From the IMG/VR virus record IMGVR_UViG_2693429668_000006: DNA of 64,000 nucleotides; one strand, given 5' to 3'. Made by a program: the position numbers and the translations under genes. This stretch comes from a virus. Taxonomy: Duplodnaviria; Heunggongvirae; Uroviricota; Caudoviricetes. This document shows, in pieces, positions 22,670-38,638 of the stretch; the stretch's first letter is position 1, and every line of letters begins with the position of its first letter. The notes beneath the pieces are model-generated. The model made no database searches. It was given only the letters and a program-made list of their open reading frames with translations, and had not been told where the DNA came from.

Positions 22670-25600
22670 TCAGTTACTTGTTGCCCCAACAGTACCTGCA
22701 AATTTCAGCCATTGACCTGACGGACTTCTATTACTACGGTAGTGATAAACGAGGATTGCGTTTGTAATCCCACCATAGTCAGCTTTGTGTGACGTCGTTA
22801 AACGAATTGTATAATCACCGTTAGGTAGATTAAAAACTTCGATTATAGATTCTGCTAATTCTACAGCACCAAATCCCGTTATATTGTTGATACTGCCAGC
22901 ATTGAATCCCATAGCATCGCCAAAGCCAATCCAATAACTTTTGCTAAACGCCCCATTTGATTTTAGGTGGCTAATGAATGCGGACAAGCTCATGCCCATA
23001 TCCCCACCTGAAACAGAGGAAGTTCGCACAGTCATACTTGGAAGAGCACTGCTCTTCACATAGGAACTTAGAAGGTTTGTTACCTCTGTTTTCGTGTAAG
23101 CATTAAGGTTAGCCGCAGTCAAAGTTATATCGGCAGAGCCATCAAACGCCACACCAGCAATTTTCCTTGCTGTCTGCAATTTTGTGGCGGTTGCGGCATT
23201 ACCAGTAGTGTTCTGGTTCCCATCTGCATTCACACCTGGAATGCTGTCTTTTTTAGTATATATCTGAGTCCAGTCCTCTTCGAACCCATAGCCATCACGT
23301 GATGAACGGTAATACAATCCACCATTTTTATAATGCGCTCGGATTTGGAGAGTCCGACAACTACCTACGCCTATATAAAAATTTGCAACGATATAAGAAT
23401 CCCCGGAGCGTGTAACATTATACGCACCTGATTCGGCATTCCACGGGACCGCACCACTAGCATCGGCATAAGTTCCAGTAGCGCGTCGAGCAAAAGCAGA
23501 TACATTTGCAGCTGTTAGTGTTATATCAGCAGAACCATCAAAAGACACGCCGCTTATTTTTCTAGCAGTTTGCAACTTCGTAGCTGTTGAAGCATTACCG
23601 TTCAAACTACCATTTACGCCACCAGTAACATTTAGTCCATTACCAATGGACACAGCACCGCTGGTATTATTAATTGTAATAGGTCGCAAACCGTTCCATG
23701 AACCTAATGTGTCTCCTGATGCTGTTAGCATGAAATATGTGTTCGATCCATCATTACGGATAAAGAACCCAAAGCTACCGTAAGCAATGCGGAAACCATT
23801 TGCATATTTTGAAACGATCTCACCAGAAGACGTTAATCCGCCAGTTAACGCTCCTCCAGATAGTGGTAAAGCTCCGACATCAGCCGCAGTAGGCTTGTTT
23901 TTAGTGTTATACGCTCTGCGCCATCCTGGTGAATAGCTCGTCCCGTTAAATACATAGATAAACTCCGCATTAGTGAGAGCACCAGAGACACTCGCCGTTG
24001 TGGCCGTTGTTATACGGATCGTATAATTGTTTGAGCTACTACCGTTATTAAATACCTCTATAACAGCTCCTGCTAATGGAATAACGCCACAACCAGTTTC
24101 ACTATTTGGTATGGTTGCACTATTGGCATAGGCCCACGCACATCGAGCAATCCATGACTTTGTGTTAAATGCTCCATTATTTTGCAATAACGTCACTAAC
24201 TGTGCTGTTGTTATTGCTCCGCCATTACTTCCTGTAGTTAACCAACCAGTAGGAGATGCCGGGCAACCTATATTTGCTGGCGACAAGGAAATATTTGCCG
24301 AGCCGTCAAACGACACCCCATTGATAGTACGCGCAGTCTGCAACTTCGTAGCAGTAGCCGCGTTGCCCGTTGTATTCTGATTACCAGTCGTATTAACACC
24401 TGGCAAATTAATATTCGCAGTACCATCAAAGCTCACGCCGCCGATAGTTCTTGCCGTCTGAAGTTTTGTAGCAGTTGCAGCATTACCAGTGGTGTTCTGA
24501 TTACCCGTAGTGTTTACACCTGGAAGGTTAATATTTGCAGAACCGTCGAAAACAACTCCACCGATAGATCTTGCCGTCTGCAATTTCGTGGCTGTACTTG
24601 CATTACCATTCAATGAACCAGTTAATCCACCTGTAACAGACAACGGACCTGAAACTGTTCCTCCGGTTGTTGGCAGTGCTCCAATATCTGATGGTGTAGG
24701 TTTCTGATGTGAGCTATACATCGTATAAACAACACCATCGGTAACGCTGGAAGGCTTACTCGCTGAATATGTTGGCGAGGTATAAATAGAAACTGTCGCA
24801 TTTGCAGTACAATCCCAATGGATATTTACACGAGTCGCATAATTGCCAATCTCAACGTAAATATCATATGTATCGCCGGATGTGTTGATCCAGGCGAAAT
24901 TCGTTAATCCGACAGCTGTACGCTTCCACAAAGCACCTGTAATCCCTTTGGGGTTTCCATTGCCTGCTCGTAGAACCAGTTCTGAAATGCCTGCCTGATG
25001 TGGGGAGCCGACGTTGTAACCAGCGCCACCAATCAATGCGATGTAAACGATGGAACTCGCTTGTGGCATGGTAACCGTAGCCAGTTTGAACCACCCTGCC
25101 CCGCCAGAGAAAGACATCGTTACTGAATTTAAAGTACCAATATCTTTCGGCGTTAATGTGATATCCGCAGTCAGTGCTTTACCGTTAACTTTTCGGTTAG
25201 ATGGCACCCTGCTATTCGCATTGTCATTGGCTGCTTTAACTGCTTTTGGCGTTGCGGCCAGCGATTCACTGGTGCTGTCGACAGCACTGCTAAGTTTCAC
25301 AACACCTTTAGTTGTAAGGCTTGCGTCTTCCATCGCAACTGCACCGGCAATCTCTTCAGCACGATCAGCAGCAGCTTCCGCACGGGTCGCAGCGGATTCA
25401 GCAGCAGTTTTGCTCTGAGATGCTGCCGTCGCACTGCCTGCCGCCTCTGTTGCTTTCGTGGATGCCGTCGTGGCACTGCCCTTCGCTGCTGACGCCTGTC
25501 TGGTCGCCTCATCTTTTGAAGCAGACGCAGATGATGCCGATGACGCCGCCGAACTGGCGGACGATGCGGCAGCCGTTTTTGAGGATTCTGCGCTGGTTTC

Positions 25601-26695
25601 CGACGCTTTCGCGTTCGTTTCGGATGTCTTCGCTGCGGAAGCAGACCTCGCTGCTGCGCTAGCCTGTTCAGTGGCTTCGCCAGCCTTCGTTGTGGCTGTT
25701 GAAGCAGACGATGCGGCACTTTCTGCCGATTTTCCGGCGGCGGTGGCACTGGCTGAGGCCTGCCCGGCACTTGTTGACGCGGCACTGGCAGACGACGCAG
25801 CCGCTGTTTTTGAGCCTGCCGCAGCTGAGGCACTCTGTGCTGCTGCCGTCTCAGAAGACTTAGCGTTCGTCTCGGACGTTTTTGCCGCCTTCGCGGAATT
25901 GCCTGCCGCTGTTGCCGAGGAGGCTGCACTACTGGCGCTCAAGGATGCGTTCGTTTCTGATGATTTCGCTGCCTCTTTTGAGGCCGCCGCATCCCGGGCT
26001 GAGGTGGCAGCTTCTGACGCTTTCGTGGTCGCGGTGGATGCAGAAGTGGCTGCTGATTGTTGTGACGCTGCGGCATTCGTTTCAGATTTTTTCGCAGCAG
26101 TTGCACTCGCACTTGCGGCACTTTGTGAGGATGCCGCAGCGGATGCACTTTGAGACGCTTGAGAGGCTTTTTCTCCAGCGGTATTGGCGCTTTCTGCTGC
26201 TGCGGCAGCACTGGCCGCTGCCTCACGAGCTTTGTCGCCAGCAGCATCAATCGCGTCAGTGTTATTTTTATACCACTCAACGTTTTCGTTGTGCTCGTTG
26301 ACGATCTGCATTAGCGGCTTAACGGTTACTTCTGTACCGTCTTCACGCTCGATTGTCACCTCATCCAGAGCAGTCAACCAACTGCGCATAGACTTGGAAT
26401 CAGCCGACATACGCGACATTAGTGCTGTAAAGCGCGCGCTAAACTGTGTTAAGTCGCCTTCATAGGTCGTAATGATTCGGCACGGAACCTCAGACTGAGT
26501 TTCGCCGGTATAAGGTTCTGAGAGAACAATATTCGTATCGCTTATTACGCGCTTGATCTCATACAGCTTATTGTCGGGGCCAATGACGATCATCCCCGGC
26601 AACACACCATTAGCTGTTACGTTCCAGGCTGTCCCTGCCCCAACCAGAGTATTGCTACCCTGTGTAAATGTGATAGTACCTTCCCTGTACCACAT
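22670..26695 (-). CDS. side tail fibre protein (lambda Stf-like) with Ala/Ser-rich region and five tail-fibre repeats
   Basis: Ala/Ser-rich segment ...AKKSETNAAASQQSAATSAST...KTSETNAKSSETAA... closely resembles lambda Stf; five copies of GNA(S/A)TATKLQTAR-x-I-x-GV-x-FDG-x-A-x-I-x-L. Confidence 0.8.
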   Translation of the reverse strand: MWYREGTITFTQGSNTLVGAGTAWNVTANGVLPGMIVIGPDNKLYEIKRVISDTNIVLSEPYTGETQSEVPCRIITTYEGDLTQFSARFTALMSRMSADSKSMRSWLTALDEVTIEREDGTEVTVKPLMQIVNEHNENVEWYKNNTDAIDAAGDKAREAAASAAAAAESANTAGEKASQASQSASAAASSQSAASASATAAKKSETNAAASQQSAATSASTATTKASEAATSARDAAASKEAAKSSETNASLSASSAASSATAAGNSAKAAKTSETNAKSSETAAAQSASAAAGSKTAAASSASAASTSAGQASASATAAGKSAESAASSASTATTKAGEATEQASAAARSASAAKTSETNAKASETSAESSKTAAASSASSAASSASSASASKDEATRQASAAKGSATTASTKATEAAGSATAASQSKTAAESAATRAEAAADRAEEIAGAVAMEDASLTTKGVVKLSSAVDSTSESLAATPKAVKAANDNANSRVPSNRKVNGKALTADITLTPKDIGTLNSVTMSFSGGAGWFKLATVTMPQASSIVYIALIGGAGYNVGSPHQAGISELVLRAGNGNPKGITGALWKRTAVGLTNFAWINTSGDTYDIYVEIGNYATRVNIHWDCTANATVSIYTSPTYSASKPSSVTDGVVYTMYSSHQKPTPSDIGALPTTGGTVSGPLSVTGGLTGSLNGNASTATKLQTARSIGGVVFDGSANINLPGVNTTGNQNTTGNAATATKLQTARTIGGVSFDGTANINLPGVNTTGNQNTTGNAATATKLQTARTINGVSFDGSANISLSPANIGCPASPTGWLTTGSNGGAITTAQLVTLLQNNGAFNTKSWIARCAWAYANSATIPNSETGCGVIPLAGAVIEVFNNGSSSNNYTIRITTATTASVSGALTNAEFIYVFNGTSYSPGWRRAYNTKNKPTAADVGALPLSGGALTGGLTSSGEIVSKYANGFRIAYGSFGFFIRNDGSNTYFMLTASGDTLGSWNGLRPITINNTSGAVSIGNGLNVTGGVNGSLNGNASTATKLQTARKISGVSFDGSADITLTAANVSAFARRATGTYADASGAVPWNAESGAYNVTRSGDSYIVANFYIGVGSCRTLQIRAHYKNGGLYYRSSRDGYGFEEDWTQIYTKKDSIPGVNADGNQNTTGNAATATKLQTARKIAGVAFDGSADITLTAANLNAYTKTEVTNLLSSYVKSSALPSMTVRTSSVSGGDMGMSLSAFISHLKSNGAFSKSYWIGFGDAMGFNAGSINNITGFGAVELAESIIEVFNLPNGDYTIRLTTSHKADYGGITNAILVYHYRSNRSPSGQWLKFAGTVGATSN

Positions 26696-26788: not shown

Positions 26789-29700
26789 TCACAGACGGCC
26801 AATTCTTACTCGTAGGACGTTGTTATCGTCATAAACGTCAATCCGCTGACCATTTATAACCAATCTCCCATTGCCGCCGCTATTACCGTTGATCTCAAGC
26901 GTTCCATTTTTGCCGAACCGCCATCCAGATCTACCGCTAACAAAATTGGTAGATTGCAGATCGCCTACTTTTGCATTGGTGATTGTGCCATCCTTGATAT
27001 ACGCTCCATTCATATAGGCGATACTGTTTTCGATAACAAATGGCGTTGTGATCTTCCCGTTAACAGAGTTGACCAAACCAAACCTGTCCGCCTGAACCAA
27101 AAACTGAGATAGCCCAGTGGTGTCAATACCAAGCGCAATACCGGCAACATACTTCTGCCCTCCGCTCGTTGAAGTCTCCATTTTCAACGTCCACGCGGTT
27201 GATACTTTTTTGTTGGTATCAGCAATAGCTGTTGCCTGCTGTTGAATTGTCGCGGTATTTCCATCCACCTCTGCTTTCAGAGTATCGATTCGCCCACTCA
27301 GAGCATTATCTGCCTGCGTTCTCGCTGTCGTTTCAGTTGTGACCGCCGCAGAAATGTTGGCTGCTGTTTGAGACTCTAAGTTTGTGATTTGAGTCGCCAA
27401 TGCAGCATCTTGCTCTGTACGCGTTTTCGTTTCGGTTGCTACAGCCGCTTTAATATCCTCTTTGTATTGAGAGGTCAGCTTGGTGATCTGAGACGACAAC
27501 GCCGAGTCAGCATCAGTTCGAGCCTGCGTTTCAACTGCAACGGCCGCACTAATATCTTTCGCTGTCTGTGCTTTTAAACTTGAAACCTCTTTTGTTAAAG
27601 CGGTATCACCATCTGCACGAGCCGTTGTTTCTCTGGCAAGAGACGCCTCGAGATCATTAGCTTTTGCTGTAAGAGACGTAATCTGGGTAGACAATGCACT
27701 ATCGGCATCAGTCCTTGCTTTTGTCTCTACAGCAACCGCTGCGGCAATATCAGTTCCGGTTTGTGCTCGCAGGCTGTTAATTTCTCGTGAGAGCGCCTGG
27801 TCAGCACTTGCTCTGGCCTCCTGCTCCTGAGTGATGGCCGCGGATATATCACCGTCAACCTTTGACTGAAGCTGGTTTATTTGTTTGGCTAACGCAGAGT
27901 CCCCGCTTGCTCGGGCCTCCTGCTCACTACGTATTGCAGCAGAAATATCATCATCAACCTTTGCCTGAAGTTGGGTGATCTGGCTTGCCAGAGCCGAATC
28001 TTCCGTTGCTCGGGCTTCTTGCTCTTCCTTAATGGCTGCGACGATATCGTTGCTTACTTTCGACTCAAGCTGAGTGATCTGTGTCGTCAGAGCTTCATCG
28101 GCAGATGTACGAGCCTCCTGCTCTGTACTAATCGCCGCGCTGATATCTCCTTCAAACTTAGATTGCAGCTGAGTGACACGCTTTGCCAACGCTTCATCGC
28201 CATCGGCACGAGCGGTGGACTCTTCCAGAATACTGGCCTTAATGTCTTCGCCAATTTCTACGCGAATTTCCTCAACCTTCGTGGCCATTGCAGACATATC
28301 ATCAGCAAAGGTTTTCTGTGTTGTTGCGATCTTCGCGTTATTGACCATCTGCTTGTGCTGGTCTTCATCTTGACGAAGAGCCAGGTCAATATTTGTTTTG
28401 GCTAACGCCTCAATGTTCGTAGTCAGTTCTGCACTGGCACGATCGACCTCTGCAACCGTCTTTTTCATTTCTTCAACGGCAGCGGAGCTTTCCTCTACCG
28501 TTGACTGCAACACTTCCAGTTGTTTAGCGTTTGCAGCATCGCCTTCAACACGAGCCTCGCTTTCCTTAGCAATAAGAGCCGCCGCTTCATCTCTTGCAGC
28601 CTTTATTGCCTCGACTGTATTAGCGAGAGCTTTATCGTGTTCAGATACGGTGTTTTCGATTTCAACAATTGCAGCATCAGTAGCATCAATTTTTTCAAAC
28701 GCTTCATTGACCTTGTCGATCGTTGCCGAAACCTCACCTTTAAGCTCGGTTTGTGCGTTCTCCAAAGCATCGCTACGCTCGTTGAATTTTATTTCAAAAT
28801 CCGCGAGGTTATCGCTGAACTGCTTATCTAATTCAGCTATATCTTCCTTAACGTCGTTTACCGCCCCCTCCAAAGATTCGACGCTCTGGTTGATATGCTC
28901 ATTTAACTCGTCAACTGCTTCTTGAGAGGCTTTGCTGTTGATGTCCTCAAGCAGAGCCTGACCAAGCTCGGAAGATGTAATTTTGCCAGTCAGGAACGAC
29001 AGTACATCGCGAGTTGTCGCCTCTGTACCCAAGTTTGAGTTCGGAGGACTTAACATACCTCGCTTGTTCGATGCTCGAACCCAGTAATACCACGTTTCGC
29101 TATCCCCAAGACCAGCATGTGTAAAGGTGGTGCTTGCAGACTCTGCGATCAGTTTCGCCGTATCCAGATTGTTGGTCTGGGATGCGTAAACATTAATGTG
29201 ATCAAGGTCTACCGAATCTGGATTAACCCAATTCAGTATCACATTACGATAGTCTCCAACGGCCGTTAATGACGTTGGGGCATCCGGCGGTGTCATTGTG
29301 CCCAACACCTGATAAACGGTACTGATAATCTCTGTTTTTTTACCGTTGAATGAAACCGCATACAGCTGGAAGTCGTAGCGTCCATTCTCCGCGACATTAA
29401 CGATTTCGTATTGCTCTTCGGTTACACGCGCCGATTGCCAGTTCGATACATTGTTTTCATCAGAACGTCGCCAACTGATCCAATACTCTGGAGATTTCCC
29501 TTCCCATGTTGCAGTCAGTTTTACTGACAGGTTGCCCGGGCTTGAGAGATAAGTCCCTTCAGTGATTTGCAGATTAGATGGCTTGGAGTAAGTTGGGTCC
29601 AATACCGTCGTATTCTGCGGGATCAGCGTTGCACCATTGTCGATTGCCTCATATTTAGACGGATTGTTCTCAACAGCGGTGATGTCAAAGCTACCCGGCG

Positions 29701-31522
29701 TTTCCCCCTGCGCGATGTTAACGATGCGAACGCGCATAGGTTCGAGGTCTGGTTCTGTAATAGTCCAGACGCCGTTCAAAACAGGCGTTTCAGCCGAAGA
29801 CAGGGCTTTTGAAAACGTAACTTTTGTTATATTTTCGCCAGTTTCAAGAACATCGCGTTCAACGATTTTGCCTTCCTGATTCAGTATTCGAATAAAGCAG
29901 CCGCCTTTGGCTAACGACACAGGCGCATCGAGTGTGACGCTGTTTTTGGTAAACGCCACAATTCGACCTGAGTTACGTTTGCCTGCGCGATATTTGTTCT
30001 GAATCAGAACGGTTTCACCAGGCATCAGAAATGACGCGTCTAAGCCGGCAGTAAATGTAATTACATCCGACTCCATTCTGGCGGTATATAAAAGCCACAA
30101 ACCAACTCGGTGAGCCTGCCCTCGGCTTGTACAGCCAAATGCTACGACTTCTGTTTTACGCTCACCATAACGGCGCATTGCGTCCTGATCTTCGACGTAC
30201 TCGATGTTTTGCTTATAACCGTCCTCCTTGTTGTTGTAGGTTACGAGCGCAACGGATGGGCGATCTTTACGCGCAGAACCTTTATAGGTAAACAATCCAT
30301 CTTTGACGTTAGAGTTGGTAAACATCATTACCGGATCTGATGGGCTATCCTGCATGATGTTAACCATCCCACCAGCCCAAAACACCATGCCGCGGAATGC
30401 TCCGGCAATATCCTGAATTAGCCGGTATGCGTCCTGTCGACTGGTGATCTGCGTATTGATTGCAAAGCGTTTCTCTTTGCCACCAAAGCCATCATCGACC
30501 TCTTCGTCACAATATCGACCAATCTGGTACAACTGGCCAAGGTCAATCATAGATTCCGACACATACTGACCAAGGCCATATCGAGCATTGGTCAGCAAAT
30601 CAAAGAGAATCCACGCGGGGTTCGAAGAAGACAACAGCTTAAAAGTGCCATCCCATACCCCAGCGTAAGTGTTACTGGACTCGTTATAGTTTGAAGGTAC
30701 TCGAATTTTTAGGCCACGCACCAGATAAGAGCGAGATGGCATGGTGCTGCCGAATTGCTCAGAGTTTACCTTCAATCCAACCAAAACAGAGTTTGGATAG
30801 TTCATCGGTGTATCGACAATTTCCCCGATTGAATCCACCCATGTATCGTTATAGAGATACTGGCTACTGTTATCATCGGTAATACGGACCACACGAACCT
30901 TGTATGCTCGTCCAGGCTTAGGCAGCTTCAGCTCATAGCTACGGTAATAAACGCCGGTCTTCTTTGCTGTTAGCTTAATGCCAACGCTTTTTTCACCTTC
31001 AGCGACCACATCTACAAATGTTGAGTCGCCATTTGCTATCTGGAACTTGTACTCAACAGTCGTACCGTTCGTGTCACCAGTTTTTTTATCTATGCTTCGC
31101 AAAGAAGGAAACTTCATGATGACACGAACCCGATCAGCTTCATCGTTATCGATTGAAACCGTTACATAATGTGTTTTTTTTAACTGGATATTGACGGATT
31201 TAGGCGTTTCAACGAAATCAAAGCCAGACATTGGAGTCTGGTCTTGTGAACCGTCGCGAAAATCCCATGTGATTCCGCTGAAGTTGGAGGAACCGTCTTC
31301 ATTTACAATCGGCAGATCGTCGATAAAAATAGATCTTGCGCCATTTACTAAGCCGCCAATTACCCCTTCCCCAAGAAGATCGAGGATAGCGGCCATTGCA
31401 CGAGAATTTACGGTATCGTCGGCTTCAACCGGTGTACGGCTGGAGCTTTTGCTGCTTTTTTTACCACCCGCACCGGCAATAAACAGCGGTAGCTTTTTCT
31501 TCTTGAACTGTTCCATGTTCAA
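26789..31522 (-). CDS. tail tip / host specificity protein (lambda J-like) with expanded coiled-coil stalk
   Basis: N-terminal and C-terminal regions align by eye with lambda J (e.g. VGLKVNSEQFGS..., GQKYVAGIALGID...); about 370 aa of 28-residue-type repeats inserted. Confidence 0.8.
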   Translation of the reverse strand: MNMEQFKKKKLPLFIAGAGGKKSSKSSSRTPVEADDTVNSRAMAAILDLLGEGVIGGLVNGARSIFIDDLPIVNEDGSSNFSGITWDFRDGSQDQTPMSGFDFVETPKSVNIQLKKTHYVTVSIDNDEADRVRVIMKFPSLRSIDKKTGDTNGTTVEYKFQIANGDSTFVDVVAEGEKSVGIKLTAKKTGVYYRSYELKLPKPGRAYKVRVVRITDDNSSQYLYNDTWVDSIGEIVDTPMNYPNSVLVGLKVNSEQFGSTMPSRSYLVRGLKIRVPSNYNESSNTYAGVWDGTFKLLSSSNPAWILFDLLTNARYGLGQYVSESMIDLGQLYQIGRYCDEEVDDGFGGKEKRFAINTQITSRQDAYRLIQDIAGAFRGMVFWAGGMVNIMQDSPSDPVMMFTNSNVKDGLFTYKGSARKDRPSVALVTYNNKEDGYKQNIEYVEDQDAMRRYGERKTEVVAFGCTSRGQAHRVGLWLLYTARMESDVITFTAGLDASFLMPGETVLIQNKYRAGKRNSGRIVAFTKNSVTLDAPVSLAKGGCFIRILNQEGKIVERDVLETGENITKVTFSKALSSAETPVLNGVWTITEPDLEPMRVRIVNIAQGETPGSFDITAVENNPSKYEAIDNGATLIPQNTTVLDPTYSKPSNLQITEGTYLSSPGNLSVKLTATWEGKSPEYWISWRRSDENNVSNWQSARVTEEQYEIVNVAENGRYDFQLYAVSFNGKKTEIISTVYQVLGTMTPPDAPTSLTAVGDYRNVILNWVNPDSVDLDHINVYASQTNNLDTAKLIAESASTTFTHAGLGDSETWYYWVRASNKRGMLSPPNSNLGTEATTRDVLSFLTGKITSSELGQALLEDINSKASQEAVDELNEHINQSVESLEGAVNDVKEDIAELDKQFSDNLADFEIKFNERSDALENAQTELKGEVSATIDKVNEAFEKIDATDAAIVEIENTVSEHDKALANTVEAIKAARDEAAALIAKESEARVEGDAANAKQLEVLQSTVEESSAAVEEMKKTVAEVDRASAELTTNIEALAKTNIDLALRQDEDQHKQMVNNAKIATTQKTFADDMSAMATKVEEIRVEIGEDIKASILEESTARADGDEALAKRVTQLQSKFEGDISAAISTEQEARTSADEALTTQITQLESKVSNDIVAAIKEEQEARATEDSALASQITQLQAKVDDDISAAIRSEQEARASGDSALAKQINQLQSKVDGDISAAITQEQEARASADQALSREINSLRAQTGTDIAAAVAVETKARTDADSALSTQITSLTAKANDLEASLARETTARADGDTALTKEVSSLKAQTAKDISAAVAVETQARTDADSALSSQITKLTSQYKEDIKAAVATETKTRTEQDAALATQITNLESQTAANISAAVTTETTARTQADNALSGRIDTLKAEVDGNTATIQQQATAIADTNKKVSTAWTLKMETSTSGGQKYVAGIALGIDTTGLSQFLVQADRFGLVNSVNGKITTPFVIENSIAYMNGAYIKDGTITNAKVGDLQSTNFVSGRSGWRFGKNGTLEINGNSGGNGRLVINGQRIDVYDDNNVLRVRIGRL

Positions 31523-31533
31523 AAAATCCTTGT

Positions 31534-32127
31534 TTACATTAGCTGGTCAATCGTGATTGAAGAACTCACAACCTGTGAGCCAACCAGAATTTCCTCGCCA
31601 TAGATAAGTTGTACTGGGTTGCCCTGGTTTTCTGTATTTTGAGGGCCGTCGAAATAATAAGAGTTCGAGTTATCTGCCTGTCTCACACTTTCGTTAGTGG
31701 CTTGCGGCGATATGATTTGTGATATGCCGCCCATCATCAGTGACAAACCGAGAGGTGCTAAAGCAGGCATCACTACCGCCGATACAACCAACAAAGCGGC
31801 CCCTACTACCGTCTGAAACCACCCAAAAGCAGATCCACCGCTTCCTCGCGGAACAGGTGTAATGCGGATTTTGGCAATGTTGTCAGACTGCCCCATCATC
31901 TGATATTCACTTTCGTCAACAGACCACTTGTGGCCCTGTTTATTGGTGATCTGGATGTGGTAACGGTCATAGGTTTTGATATTGCGCTTCATCCATGCTT
32001 TAAACCCAGGCTTGTTGGCCTCAATTAAATCCAGAGCCTGTTTTGTATTGCGCACCTTTAGATGCCAGTGGCGGCCAAAATGTTTGGCCATAGGGCCGCC
32101 AAGCTGCACATGAACTAACTCAGACAC
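31534..32127 (-). CDS. tail assembly protein (lambda I-like)
   Basis: Gene order after K; segments VPRGSGGSAFG and LIYGEEILVGSQVVSSSI parallel lambda gpI. Confidence 0.6.
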   Translation of the reverse strand: MSELVHVQLGGPMAKHFGRHWHLKVRNTKQALDLIEANKPGFKAWMKRNIKTYDRYHIQITNKQGHKWSVDESEYQMMGQSDNIAKIRITPVPRGSGGSAFGWFQTVVGAALLVVSAVVMPALAPLGLSLMMGGISQIISPQATNESVRQADNSNSYYFDGPQNTENQGNPVQLIYGEEILVGSQVVSSSITIDQLM

Positions 32128-34063: not shown

Positions 34064-37000
34064 TTAGTTACGTTGAGTGTTTGGGTTGAGTGATCCGCCA
34101 GGGCGTTTCTCTTGAGCGATAGTCTCAAGCGCGATTGCTTTCATCCGTTGAGCGGCATTGTTCCATATGCTTTCTGTATCGCCGGATTCAGTTGTGCTAC
34201 CGTCACTATGGACGTTGATCTCAATTGATACAGGAGAAAGAACATTTCCTCCTCCACTCATACCATCGGTACTGAGCGTTACAGGGATTGTTCGACCATC
34301 AGGCAATGGAACATACGCCTCATTCATAGAACCTTCCCCAAACAACGCTAATTGAGGTGAGTTAGCAATACCGCCTTTCTGGTATGCCCGGAGCGGGATC
34401 ACGCCGTCTTTTCCGAATATTCCGCCATTTGCAAACTTCGGGATTGCAGGAATGCCTTTAGTTCCGTCAGCCACACTGCTGGTTGCGGTTTTAGCAGAGC
34501 TTGATGTCACGCTGTCGAAACCACCGCCAGCCCATACTGAAACCAAACCAGATGCAACTGTCGCGCCGAAATTCAACCACTTATTACCAGAGCCGGAAGC
34601 ATTAGCTCCAAGCATTGCAAACGCGGCAGACAGAGCGCCGGTAACAGAGCTGAGGTTCTGCATCGAGAAGATGGAGTCCTTCACTGCTTTTGTCTCAGCA
34701 TCTTTGGCTTCGGTGCTATTAAATAGCCCTGATACCCAGCTACCAATCGCATTTGTTGCTGTGCCAATTGCGCTGGTGGTCTGCTGTGTCGTTTGCCCCA
34801 ATCCAGTTACCGAACTGGACGTCTCCTTCGTGGCTTCTCCTACCGACTTGTCGCCATTAACAGTGTTGCTTATGCGCACACCTTGATTGGCAACTGCGGA
34901 AGCAACCCCGGTGAGCAAATTACCACTCTGTGAACTACCAGCTGCGGTGGTTCCCATTCCCAACATGTTCATTAGAGGCAGCGTGATCTGCGACTTCACG
35001 ACCATATTGGTGATATCTTTCAAAATGGACTGAGATAGGCTGGAGAAGCTCATCTTCCCGTTAATAACGAAATCAGTCAGGACATCAGTTAAGCCACTAA
35101 ACAAATCAGTCCAGGTGCTTTCGATCTGCTCTGCCAGATTTTCGTATTCCAGTGCCAACTTCTGCGTCGCAGTCCCCGTCTCTTTAATAAGCGCGGTATT
35201 GCCAGCAGCAATCAGTTGATTGATTTTCTTTGTATAAAGCGCCACAACTTTAGGATCAGACGCCTTATCACGAAGTTCTATCAACGCTTTGAGATTGCGG
35301 TTGTAGGTGTCTTCGAAATCAGCAACTTTCTCTTCGCGAGACGGCGTATAGCCAGCACTAATAATGGAATCCGCCTCCGGTGCCCAAGTGGAGATCATCT
35401 GCTCAACATTGCGGCGATTAAACATCTCACGATATTCAGGTGTCGCATTTTTGAGGTCTTCAAGACGTTTTTTCGCCTTGTCGATCATCTCTTGAGTGAT
35501 GAACTCGTTAGGAACCGCATTAGCCAAATCTGTCAGCGATTTCGTTGTATCGCGAAGAGACTGATCAAACGATACCGTAGCCTTAGAGCTTTCACCCATT
35601 TGCCCCATAAGCTGATCGGCTTTGTCCAGAGCCTTCTGGTATCCGGCTGCCAGTTTCTGTTGCGCTGCCTGTTCCTTCTTGGCCGCACGCTGCGAGGCGT
35701 TAGCTGATCGTTGGGCTGCTTTCTCGGCAGCTGCTGCATCCTGTTCACGAGCTTTAGTAAGTGCGGCAATGGCTGCGGCACGCTCTTCATCGCTCATTTT
35801 CTCCAGAGAGCTGGCACTGGATGCTTTCTGCAAATTAAGCTGCGTCTTGAGTTGTTTAGGCCCAATAATCGGCTTACCTTCGAAGTCCATCATCGGAGTG
35901 CCGTCAGGCAAAGTACGCTGATAAGTCGCAGAATCCATCTGGTTTCGCATATATTGCGCCAACGCCTTCTGAGCAGCTTTATCAGTTGTACCTAACCCAA
36001 GAACAGTCCCCTGGTTTGACATTACGCCCTTACCAGTTTTGGCCGCGTTATCTCTCTCGAACTCTGCCTGAGTAAGTTCCTGAGCAACGGCTTCCAAATG
36101 CTCCTGATAACCACGAATACTGCCTTGCAGTTTCTGGATTTGCTCGGTATTGCCATCCTTTTTGGCTTTTTCAAGCTGATCATTAAGAGTCGCGATTTGC
36201 TTCTCGGTCGCATTCTTACGAGAAGAAAGTGAATCAACCAGTTTTTGCGCAGGCTCCAGATAGCTTTTGTTTACCGTTTCACGTAACGGTGCCAATAGCT
36301 TGTTCTTTTCGTCATCTGAAAGTGAACCGTCATCATTGATTTTCTGGATCTTATCCAGAGCCTCCTGCCGGGCTTTCACGAATGTTGCCGCGAAAATCTG
36401 GTTTTCCGCTCGAATTTTCTCAATCTGAGATTCGGCAGCCTCTTTAGCCAAACGCTTTGCTACAGCGCCGTCACCAAGAGCTATCGTGCCGGTTATCTTT
36501 TGATACTCTTCCTGATTTTTTTTCAGGCGTGCTTCGATGTCAGCCTTCGACTCTTTGTGAGTAATAACACCGGCAGAGTTAGATACGTAATTAACACCCT
36601 CACCAGTTTTTAATGCTCGTTGATCAGCAAGAATCTGCTTTTCGAGCTTTTCTGCGCGGTCGGCCATTTGTGCACGTTTGGCCGCCGTCATCGCCTCTGG
36701 TATTTTCCTAATCTCGTCAACGACCTTTGAAGTTTCGCTGCGGAGCATGGTCATGTACGTGATTAGGCCAGCAACAGCTACAGTGGCAACTGTAAATGCT
36801 GCCCCTATAGGGTTTGCTGCAATGAACGCCGTTAATCCAGCAAAAGCGCCTTTAAGCCCCGTAATCGCCCCACGGATGGCGAAAATAAGAGAGGGGATCG
36901 GAGCCAGCCCCATACGTGCCGCACGATTGAATCGGGTTACTGCTGTAGCGCCGAGGTTAAATGGAGTCTGTATGGCGGTCGCCATCGTGGCAAAGGTGCT

Positions 37001-38638
37001 AACCATCTGGCTGCCTGCGCCAACTACCCCCATGATCCCTGCTCGCATCAGTTTGAACGCAACCATCGCGGCCACGACCTTACCGAGATTAATTACCAGC
37101 TCTTGGTTCTTTGCTAACCATTGAGCAAGCTGACGCAACCCATCGATTGCCGTCGTTAACCCCGAGCCTAAAGAATTGGCAAACGAAATCCCTTCGGCGC
37201 TATTCATGATTGAAGCCAGTTCTTTCATCCCCTTCGATAGAGAATCCAGATATCCGGCCTGACCAACCCGATCAGCAAATAACGTGAATGACGTCTGAAG
37301 TTGCGCCAGCGCACCTGTGTAGGTTTGCATCATGTCTTTCGCTGCGTTCTCATTCTCCGCACGCAGACCAACAAACATCAGAGACAACGCCTGTTTTGCC
37401 TCAACCGTACCGCTGGCAACGGCTTTAGTCAGTTCCCCCATAGTGATGCCTGCGGCGTCTGCCATTGCCTGCATCGCGTTAGGAACGGCTTCACCTAATT
37501 GCTGACGTAGCTCTTCCATTGACACAACGCCCTTACCGGACATCTGCTGAACGGCCACAGCCGCACGTTTCAACAGCTCACTATCACCACCAAAACGAGC
37601 AACGGAGTCCACCAGCGCCTTCAGAGAACCATCGGTTGGATCTAAGCCAGCAGAACGAAACTTCACGAAGGAATCTGTTAACGCCTGCATCGCGAACGGC
37701 GCATTTTGCGCCATGTCTACGATGTACTTCATATCATCAGCGGCAGCCTGGCCCGGGTTGGACTTCTCCTTATTCAACCCTCGAAGCATCACCCGCATAC
37801 GTTCCATTTCGGCCGCAGCTTCAACAATAGGCTTCTGCCACCCAAACATGATGTCAGTAACCGTTCTGGCTGCATCTCCGATCTCGCCAAGCAGGAAAAT
37901 GTTGCCACGAAGGCCAGAGAATATACCTCCTTCGTTACTTTTACCGCTATGGCCAGAAGCGCCGCTACGCCGCCCGCTACCACCATCGCCACTTCCAGAT
38001 GTACGAACGCGTACCGGCTTGCTAATCAGTTGCTGACGTCCGATAACTTCGTCCATCTGCTCACGAACCTTTTTCAGTCCCTCGGCAGCCTGACTCGTTG
38101 TGACACCCCAATTACTGAGTCGCTTCGTCGTGGTATTAAGGCGCGTATTCATGCCACTCACGGACGCAGAGGCTTCTTTGGCCTCCGTACCAAAGCGGCT
38201 TGCGCTTTTGCTTGCATAGGTCGCCCAATCAGAGAAATCATTTAGCTCTGATTGCACTTTACGTAATGACGCGGTGAGTTTATCTACTGAAGAAGTTGTC
38301 GTATCGACGCGCTCAATCAGGGCTTTAAGACCAGAATTGAGGCTGGTGATGTTGCCACGCATTTTACGCGTAGCATCTGAAGCAAGCTCAAAACCGGCAG
38401 CTACATCCTGTAGTTTATCTGCCGTAGAATCGAGCTTGCTTTCCAGAACGCCAATGATACGGGCGACCGAACCCAAAGAGCGTTCAAAGGTTTGGATTTT
38501 TTGAGCAGGCTTTGTTACCTGCTCACCAAATCGAGTAAGCAGTTTCCCCGCACGATCGATTGACGCTGTAAACTGTTTGTCTTCCAGCGACAGGATAAAC
38601 TCTACGTTTTGTGACATTCCCTTGTCATCCTCTGCCAA
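34064..38638 (-). CDS. tail tape measure protein
   Basis: 1524 aa, coiled-coil and Gly/Ala-rich hydrophobic segments, position between G-T chaperones and M. Confidence 0.75.
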   Translation of the reverse strand: MAEDDKGMSQNVEFILSLEDKQFTASIDRAGKLLTRFGEQVTKPAQKIQTFERSLGSVARIIGVLESKLDSTADKLQDVAAGFELASDATRKMRGNITSLNSGLKALIERVDTTTSSVDKLTASLRKVQSELNDFSDWATYASKSASRFGTEAKEASASVSGMNTRLNTTTKRLSNWGVTTSQAAEGLKKVREQMDEVIGRQQLISKPVRVRTSGSGDGGSGRRSGASGHSGKSNEGGIFSGLRGNIFLLGEIGDAARTVTDIMFGWQKPIVEAAAEMERMRVMLRGLNKEKSNPGQAAADDMKYIVDMAQNAPFAMQALTDSFVKFRSAGLDPTDGSLKALVDSVARFGGDSELLKRAAVAVQQMSGKGVVSMEELRQQLGEAVPNAMQAMADAAGITMGELTKAVASGTVEAKQALSLMFVGLRAENENAAKDMMQTYTGALAQLQTSFTLFADRVGQAGYLDSLSKGMKELASIMNSAEGISFANSLGSGLTTAIDGLRQLAQWLAKNQELVINLGKVVAAMVAFKLMRAGIMGVVGAGSQMVSTFATMATAIQTPFNLGATAVTRFNRAARMGLAPIPSLIFAIRGAITGLKGAFAGLTAFIAANPIGAAFTVATVAVAGLITYMTMLRSETSKVVDEIRKIPEAMTAAKRAQMADRAEKLEKQILADQRALKTGEGVNYVSNSAGVITHKESKADIEARLKKNQEEYQKITGTIALGDGAVAKRLAKEAAESQIEKIRAENQIFAATFVKARQEALDKIQKINDDGSLSDDEKNKLLAPLRETVNKSYLEPAQKLVDSLSSRKNATEKQIATLNDQLEKAKKDGNTEQIQKLQGSIRGYQEHLEAVAQELTQAEFERDNAAKTGKGVMSNQGTVLGLGTTDKAAQKALAQYMRNQMDSATYQRTLPDGTPMMDFEGKPIIGPKQLKTQLNLQKASSASSLEKMSDEERAAAIAALTKAREQDAAAAEKAAQRSANASQRAAKKEQAAQQKLAAGYQKALDKADQLMGQMGESSKATVSFDQSLRDTTKSLTDLANAVPNEFITQEMIDKAKKRLEDLKNATPEYREMFNRRNVEQMISTWAPEADSIISAGYTPSREEKVADFEDTYNRNLKALIELRDKASDPKVVALYTKKINQLIAAGNTALIKETGTATQKLALEYENLAEQIESTWTDLFSGLTDVLTDFVINGKMSFSSLSQSILKDITNMVVKSQITLPLMNMLGMGTTAAGSSQSGNLLTGVASAVANQGVRISNTVNGDKSVGEATKETSSSVTGLGQTTQQTTSAIGTATNAIGSWVSGLFNSTEAKDAETKAVKDSIFSMQNLSSVTGALSAAFAMLGANASGSGNKWLNFGATVASGLVSVWAGGGFDSVTSSSAKTATSSVADGTKGIPAIPKFANGGIFGKDGVIPLRAYQKGGIANSPQLALFGEGSMNEAYVPLPDGRTIPVTLSTDGMSGGGNVLSPVSIEINVHSDGSTTESGDTESIWNNAAQRMKAIALETIAQEKRPGGSLNPNTQRN

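Follow-up and report, generated by a model that had tools for sequence, protein, structure and literature searches.

The closest described counterparts of the protein considered here are the central fibres of the F-type pyocins of Pseudomonas aeruginosa (F2 PyoF10 / PA0641 and F7 CFP) and gp33 of phage T1 (Drexlerviridae). The F2 and F7 pyocins have shafts built as trimeric coiled coils (PMC13455828; PMC12874032; bioRxiv 10.64898/2026.02.24.707460). For the F7 pyocin, He et al. 2026 (PMC12874032) describe a change of this shaft from a coiled coil into a beta-prism, by which the tip is opened and the tape measure protein set free; where Gln substitutions prevent the prism from forming, killing is lost and assembly is unaffected. 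The motif SxSxxMxxLxS occurs in each strand of the prism, oriented as that strand, and acidic residues at the M position pair with an Arg four residues away, as in Glu1039-Arg1043 (PMC12874032, Fig. 5 legend). The C-terminus of T1 gp33, residues 821-1172, is not resolved by cryo-EM because of its flexibility, and a protrusion of about 370 A is predicted for it (PMC11945409). The DNA analysed here, called the window, is a stretch of 64,000 nucleotides (nt) from IMG/VR record IMGVR_UViG_2693429668_000006, a virus of the Caudoviricetes. It carries a J-like central fibre (tip attachment) gene whose product has a long stalk between its conserved body and its distal domain, and ten tandem units of 33 residues make up the greater part of this stalk. 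The stalk is very probably a helical shaft homologous to those of T1 and the pyocins, with polymorphism by whole units.

The J-like gene occupies 26789..31522 on the minus strand. In the list of open reading frames (ORFs) it encodes 1577 residues from a TTG at 31522, from which residues are numbered here; its database homologues start two codons later, at the ATG at 31516, giving 1575 residues. The protein differs from the homologue P0001 by three substitutions, is assigned by PHROG to central tail fiber J, and has Pfam matches to FNIII-A_GpJ (residues 104-238), Phage-tail_3 (360-523), fn3 (747-826) and Phage_Tail_Tip (1425-1559). The body, hub plus FNIII domains, takes up residues 1-861 (28940..31522, minus strand) and is collinear with lambda J: BLASTP aligns residues 20-861 to residues 2-835 of lambda J, with 32% identity across some 840 residues (E 7e-116). 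The solved structures matched by sequence over residues 20-868 are the F2-pyocin fibre, T1 gp33 and lambda J. Alignment with lambda J resumes at residues 1422-1510, which correspond to lambda 841-931. Because collinear alignments flank residues 862-1421, this part of the protein is an insertion of about 560 residues at a place where lambda J has about 5. The original prediction, made from the sequence of the window, of an expanded stalk that lambda J lacks, having only a short linker at this place, is therefore borne out by the alignment, and the whole insertion is larger than the 370 or so residues first estimated.

The domain beyond the stalk, which had been read as resembling a receptor-binding domain, is something else. 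Beginning GQKYVAGIALGID, it is PF09327, Phage_Tail_Tip (Pfam E 1.4e-41; residues 1425-1559, 26846..27250, minus strand), is predicted to be all-beta, and in Foldseek resembles the central fibre of lambda gpJ (8xcj/8xci) and the SU10 tip fibre (7z4b). The same domain is present in lambda J at residues 845-972, the central straight fibre, where it is followed by extra Ig domains and the LamB-binding Ig_GpJ_C domain (PF12421, residues 1001-1132), which of the two proteins only lambda J has. Pfam does not find PF12421 in the J protein of the window, which ends after PF09327. A receptor-binding domain of the lambda type at this position is thus ruled out, the annotation 'host specificity protein J' stands here on a protein without that domain, and the receptor-binding function should be sought elsewhere. 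The NCBIfam model lambda_TipJ gives a score of 527 bits, below its cut-off of 1950. After PF09327 there is only a C-terminal tail of residues 1560-1577 (...VLRVRIGRL; 26792..26845, minus strand), delimited by HMMER alignments to 9l9p_S and 9ze4_N. This ending is kept in T1 gp33 and in gp56, the gpJ-like fibre of Pseudomonas phage DEV; the T1 gp33 alignment reaches the last residue, ...RVQIGRL against ...RVRIGRL here.

The region 27250..28400, residues 1041-1425, contains a strong tandem repeat at the protein level. Over residues 1040-1430 the sequence is 43% identical to itself at an offset of 33 residues, 34% at 66 and 28% at 99, while the best offsets away from multiples of 33 reach about 17%. 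The period is therefore 33 residues and not the 28 first proposed (the motif as then written is itself 31 characters long), although one junction measures 32. A search with a profile of the unit finds ten copies of 47-59 bits each (E 1e-14 to 2e-18), so that the dozen or so repeats over about 370 residues reduce to ten clean copies over 329, residues 1092-1420 (27263..28249, minus strand), delimited by the profile matches, the self-identity at offset 33 and an alignment of the units. From the N-terminal end, all on the minus strand, units 1 to 5 lie at 28151-28249, 28052-28150, 27953-28051, 27854-27952 and 27755-27853, and units 6 to 10 at 27656-27754, 27560-27658, 27461-27559, 27362-27460 and 27263-27361. 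Their consensus is xDISAAIxxETxARAxADxALxxQITxLxSKxx, and seven columns (A5, E10, R14, D18, A20, L21 and L28) are invariant in the alignment of the ten. In Pfam searches at E up to 5 the repeat gives only sub-threshold coiled-coil noise, such as SF-assemblin; with no family at threshold, the unit is without a Pfam model. As for a curated NCBIfam family, the only match is the sub-threshold one to lambda_TipJ. The unit profile detects no unit in lambda gpJ.

The proximal part of the stalk, residues 862-1091 (28250..28939, minus strand), is likewise not in lambda J and has a heptad-like hydrophobic period of 3.56, that of a plain coiled coil. It contains a degenerate copy of the unit, DEAAALIAKESEARVEGDAANAKQLEVLQSTVE, at residues 978-1010 (28493..28591, minus strand; unit-profile hmmsearch 13.6 bits, E 3e-4), which is kept at the same position in all relatives examined. 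Motif matches 32 residues apart around residues 946-1041 (at 950, 982 and 1014, and at 965 and 997) suggest two further degenerate units there. Between the degenerate and the clean units is a non-repeat, acidic segment of about residues 1042-1091.

At the DNA level the repeat is detectable, as had been proposed, and it is weak. Mean identity between units is 52% in register and 28% out of register, and adjacent units are 56% identical; the longest exact run common to two units is 12 nt, and Tandem Repeats Finder picks up no more than 2.2 copies of period 99, at 27807..28024. Two plus-strand ORFs lie antisense to the stalk, at 27971-28405 (144 residues) and 28398-28925 (175 residues), and are most simply a by-product of its biased, repetitive codon content.

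Taken alone, the repeat region matches by sequence T1 gp33 (9l9p_S, E 5.7e-11), phage DEV gp56 (9ze4_N, E 1.2e-8) and the F2-pyocin central fibre (25vf_A, E 5.8e-5), and the last 270 residues of the protein match 9l9p_S at E 3.6e-27 and 25vf_A (PyoF10) at E 4.2e-23. On these sequence matches, the stalk can be taken as the same structural element as the C-terminal part of T1 gp33 and the shaft of the F-type pyocin fibre. T1 gp33 is the closest solved relative of the C-terminal part and has 33-residue units of its own (DDIQASLTDIREVIATETEALSREIDQLKAQIG), although only three to four are recognisable, compared to ten here. The pyocin fibres share with the window protein the J-like hub, two FNIII domains, helical shaft and distal beta-prism domain, as well as the SxSxxMxxLxS motif and the Glu-Arg pair at i+4 (PMC12874032), and they too have no receptor-binding domain of the lambda type. 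They differ in the length of the shaft, which in the pyocins is some 163-175 residues, or about five units, compared to 329 residues for the clean array here and about 560 for the helical segment as a whole. The window protein also belongs to a DNA-carrying phage-plasmid of enterobacteria, unlike the F-type pyocins, and the pyocin papers, among them the preprint on F7, do not describe the shaft as a tandem repeat and report no polymorphism in unit number.

The stalk is predicted to be helical. It contains no proline in 559 residues, and its core spacing of nine positions in 33 residues would allow a coiled coil. AlphaFold2, run on a monomer with a 73-sequence alignment, gives the last five units as one continuous helix with a predicted local distance difference test score of 90-97, which runs straight through the Gly-Asp unit boundaries; a single-sequence monomer run makes the units helical too. 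With the alignment, the units are followed by an all-beta distal domain, with strands from about residue 1414. Together with PF09327 and the Foldseek matches, these strands place a beta-prism 'seed' directly C-terminal to the repeat segment. Residues 1414-1440 (approximately 27203-27283) are beta with the alignment and helix from the single sequence, and this join between the last unit and the distal domain is the only modelled part whose secondary structure depends on alignment depth. By analogy with the homologues, the protein is expected to assemble as a trimer, its three chains making up a coiled coil.

Each of the ten units carries the F7 fold-switch motif twice, in opposite orientations. 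The reverse copy is in columns 5-15, A-x-[IVL]-x-x-E-x-x-[AT]-R-[AT], and the forward copy in columns 20-30, A-x-[AST]-x-x-[IV]-x-x-L-x-[SA]. The Glu of column 10, at the M position, and the Arg of column 14, at i+4, are present in all ten. In total the array has 26 motif matches, compared to 4.9 +/- 2.1 in shuffled sequences (maximum 12 in 500 shuffles); there are none in the distal domain, and one in the Ala/Ser-rich region of the 1341-residue fibre encoded downstream. The strongest harmonic of the mean unit hydropathy has a period of 2.06 (p 0.015 by column permutation), which is a beta-strand signature. Whether the stalk of the window protein also switches fold is, on the motif match and the homology, an evenly balanced question.

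If it does, the stalk would work as follows. In the resting state a trimeric coiled coil would hold the distal beta-prism domain, and any receptor-binding partner, away from the tail tip; each unit would be nine helical turns, about 4.9 nm long, with a core spacing of 4-4-4-3 / 4-4-3 / 4-3. At about 0.1485 nm per residue the ten units would extend for about 49 nm and the helical segment of residues 862-1420 for about 83 nm. The helical stalk would be metastable, and on engagement of a receptor by its distal end it would collapse to a far shorter beta-prism, to which each unit would contribute one beta-hairpin; the collapse would open the tail tip and free the tape measure protein. Reach and stroke size would then both be determined by the number of units. 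Taken as a whole, a homologous modular helical shaft that switches fold and evolves by whole units is probably the best explanation of the locus. It is a more tentative suggestion that the stalk is a fold-switching 'spring' of which the 33-residue unit is the quantum, with the allelic series tuning reach and stroke, or stored energy, to the thickness of the host surface layer. The 4 to 11 units in otherwise near-identical J proteins of the SSU5 type, and the 22 in a relative with 59% identity in the body, would then form a tuning series, and gain and loss of whole units would be how phage-plasmids adapt to new hosts.

The number of clean units differs among related elements, and it does so by whole units, as seen both in unit-profile counts and in alignments of alleles; the expectation that the array varies in length is thus upheld. 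Close Escherichia homologues have 4, 5, 6, 7, 8, 9 or 10 clean units. There are 5 in Salmonella phage SSU5 and in an Enterobacter hormaechei plasmid, 4 in a Salmonella Typhi plasmid, and 6 in Yersinia pestis pFra and in a Citrobacter freundii plasmid. Alleles P0033 and P0117 are 100% identical save for one 33-residue unit, and P0001 and P0003 are 99.7% identical save for 66 residues. In other pairs the array differences come to 66, 99 and 33 residues, with separate indels of 7 or 11 residues in the proximal non-repeat stalk; elsewhere, alleles with array differences of 33, 66 and 99 residues are 96-100% identical. The N-terminally truncated allele P0006, from Shigella sonnei assembly GCA_023794135.1 (L010), has an extra unit, which is an in-register tandem duplication of 99 nt, 98/99 identical to its source. 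In P0003 the junction can be read as a pair of 99-nt deletions, one at a microhomology of 8 nt and one at a microhomology of 10 nt.

These junctions bear on how the length changes arise. The original prediction saw in the DNA repeat a substrate for changes of length by recombination, which might affect fibre reach or host range; ordinary recombination is not what the alleles indicate: with 52% identity between units, exact shared runs of at most 12 nt and microhomology at the junctions, homologous recombination between DNA units is an unlikely cause. Given the low identity between units, the array probably evolves by gain and loss of whole 99-nt units in rare, microhomology-mediated events, with selection keeping the register.

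Several observations weigh against the fold-switching, modular account. The trimeric state is assumed from the homologues. Both the fold-switch model and the motif derive from a single preprint, which deals with a Pseudomonas pyocin and does not mention proteins of the SSU5 type in its main text (PMC12874032). AlphaFold2 does not yield a beta-prism for the units, only helix, in monomer runs with the 73-sequence alignment or a single sequence; because these are monomer models only, this is not a valid negative for the prism, the published prediction having used AlphaFold2-multimer with both deep and shallow alignments (PMC12874032). On the Kyte-Doolittle scale the harmonic of the unit hydropathy at the helical period of 3.67 does not reach significance (p 0.2), in part because that scale counts Ala as hydrophobic. 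A sequence comparison of the 1341-residue fibre with the PDB revealed no homologue of the attachment domain of the pyocin side fibres, and in the window no small receptor-binding gene is directly beside J, the next downstream ORF being that of the 1341-residue fibre. The indel mechanism rests on two alleles, of which the P0003 junction needs either two events or an unseen parent allele. P0006 also carries an out-of-register, in-frame deletion of 354 nt, with 1 nt of microhomology, that removes units 8-10 and the start of the linker.

Three other explanations of the stalk have been considered. It might be a passive spacer, a stable coiled coil that sets the reach through O-antigen or capsule with no conformational change, in which case the unit number would tune reach alone. 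That both AlphaFold2 runs give confident helix and nothing else would agree with this, as would unit numbers that vary freely among near-identical alleles, as under loose constraint, and the existence elsewhere of arrays of at least 20 units. Such a spacer would not however account for the significant period-2 signal in the hydropathy of the unit, and the homologous F7 segment does switch, mutants blocked in the switch being inactive (PMC12874032). A spacer without a switch is thus considered rather unlikely. Less likely still is that the stalk is mainly a docking platform for side fibres encoded downstream, with extra units as spacing or docking sites. In the F-type pyocins the shaft has a kinked, acidic stretch to which three trimers of side fibres are bound (PMC13455828; PMC12874032). 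The stalk here has the acidic, non-repeat segment of about residues 1042-1091, and the next gene encodes a 1341-residue fibre whose N-terminal 140 residues or so match no solved structure by sequence. That fibre, however, has no sequence similarity to any solved side-fibre attachment domain, and the clean units are near-uniform and without an obvious kink, the modelled helix being straight across the unit boundaries. A docking role would not exclude the fold-switching shaft, with which it is compatible.

The third explanation, that the gene is a hypermutable contingency locus, in which the DNA repeat drives frequent RecA-dependent or slippage changes in copy number and so a rapid switching of fibre length, is very improbable. 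Near-identical alleles do differ in copy number by whole units within the array, and the duplication in P0006 is fresh. Against this stand the low identity of the DNA units and the shortness of their shared runs, the near failure of Tandem Repeats Finder to detect the array, and the conservation of the 10-unit allele, at least 99% identical, in 50 plasmid records of differing host and source, a sign that it is stable over epidemiological times.

Only by comparison with lambda does the stalk stand out. The array and distal domain together match 1600 phage records, mostly Escherichia and Klebsiella phages, T1-like and lambdoid ones included, followed by Pseudomonas, Ralstonia and Burkholderia phages. 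A search with the unit profile returns 1958 representative protein clusters at E <=1e-3, including 175 at E <=1e-30, with array periods of 32 (the commonest), 36, 33 and 39 residues. In a recount of the best 150 of the 1958 clusters, 76 have at least 10 units and 7 at least 20, with a maximum of 25, so that ten units cannot be regarded as an exceptional expansion. The 2138-residue protein P0121, which has the same Pfam architecture, the same 33-residue unit and 58.6% identity in the body, has 22 units compared to the ten here. The window allele is the longest intact form among the SSU5-like relatives sampled, with twice the units of SSU5, and is in the middle of the range overall. This is the normal architecture in T1-like phages, in many lambdoid and Klebsiella phages and in the F-type pyocins, and the protein is a longer-than-usual member of an already known type. 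Neither the clean modularity of 33 residues, in which each unit has a pair of inverted fold-switch motifs, nor the allelic series by whole units seems to have been described.

The J gene is 99.2% identical to that of Escherichia phage Cyrano, 100% identical to copies on several E. coli plasmids of about 110 kb, and, in the body-encoding part only, about 78% identical to that of SSU5. On these identities the window is assigned to an SSU5-type phage-plasmid, with which the neighbouring genes agree: a tape-measure-sized ORF, a gene in the gpI position upstream of J and the 1341-residue fibre downstream. The tape-measure-sized ORF, at 34064..38638 on the minus strand, is 1524 residues long, the tape measure protein of Cyrano having 1525. 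The gene directly upstream of J (31534..32127, minus strand; 197 residues) occupies the place where related plasmids have their 'tail assembly protein' (lambda gpI-like) gene, and its order and annotation are the same in SSU5, Y. pestis pFra and other relatives. In the Cyrano paper the tail measures 259 nm, compared to the 230 nm predicted from the tape measure protein; the excess of about 29 nm is left without explanation and no tip fibre is described, for which reason the virion images are not usable as evidence of fibre length.

The next gene downstream of J encodes the 1341-residue tail fibre (22670..26695, minus strand; Pfam Gp34_trimer), which may be a partner to the stalk or to the stalk's distal end. 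Its sequence matches in the PDB are only to a Mu-type S fibre and T4 gp34. It has trimerisation repeats of the T4 gp34 type, and there is a 120-nt tandem repeat in the DNA at 24348-24608. A block of 82 residues is 89% identical to lambda Stf and lies in an Ala/Ser-rich region of about residues 140-470; this block is the sole similarity to lambda Stf. A link by sequence to the pyocin side fibre was discarded, the N-terminus of the fibre giving no match. The F-type pyocins have small distal binding proteins encoded beside the fibre gene as well as shaft-bound side fibres, and neither has been identified here; T1-like phages have receptor-binding proteins in small genes flanking the J-like gene (summarised in PMC12892993), whereas none flank J in the window. 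The gene content after J varies among the relatives. In pFra a small DUF4376 gene lies between J and the fibre gene (L003:7695-8273), and in SSU5 a 178-residue 'receptor-recognising adhesin' follows the fibre gene (L002:635-1171); neither of these adjoins J in the window. The J protein of pFra has a longer C-terminal part, being 1543 residues in all with just 6 units.

More distant forms of the gene are also present in this group. Klebsiella SSU5-like phage-plasmids have a giant J-like protein of 4056 residues (K. pneumoniae plasmid NZ_CP107348.1, L008:110-12280), the first 900 or so residues of which are 82% identical to the window J; past these there are no clean 33-residue units, only weak scattered matches. 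PHROG 2589, with a profile length of 3686, appears to be this giant form. In the E. coli plasmids NZ_CP053233.1, NZ_CP029421.1 and NZ_CP028433.1 the match to J is split in two and spans about 6.0 kb, compared to 4.7 kb. An IS3-like IS1203 transposase is annotated under the match in NZ_CP028433.1 (H43), where an insertion sequence seems to have interrupted the J gene.

What provides the energy for opening a non-contractile tail tip and for crossing the outer membrane is an open question, to which the switch of a coiled coil into a beta-prism proposed in 2026 for the F-type pyocins is one candidate answer. The sequence grammar of that switch is present here as a clean tandem array in widespread phage-plasmids of enterobacteria, including SSU5, Cyrano, those like pHCM2, and Y. 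pestis pMT1/pFra. These elements provide a natural length series, of 4-10 units plus the truncated allele with an extra unit, in which some members are otherwise 99.7-100% identical. The series is a ready-made experiment relating unit number to fibre length, adsorption, host range and ejection efficiency, and the modularity of the stalk together with its alleles gives a direct handle on the fold-switch hypothesis.

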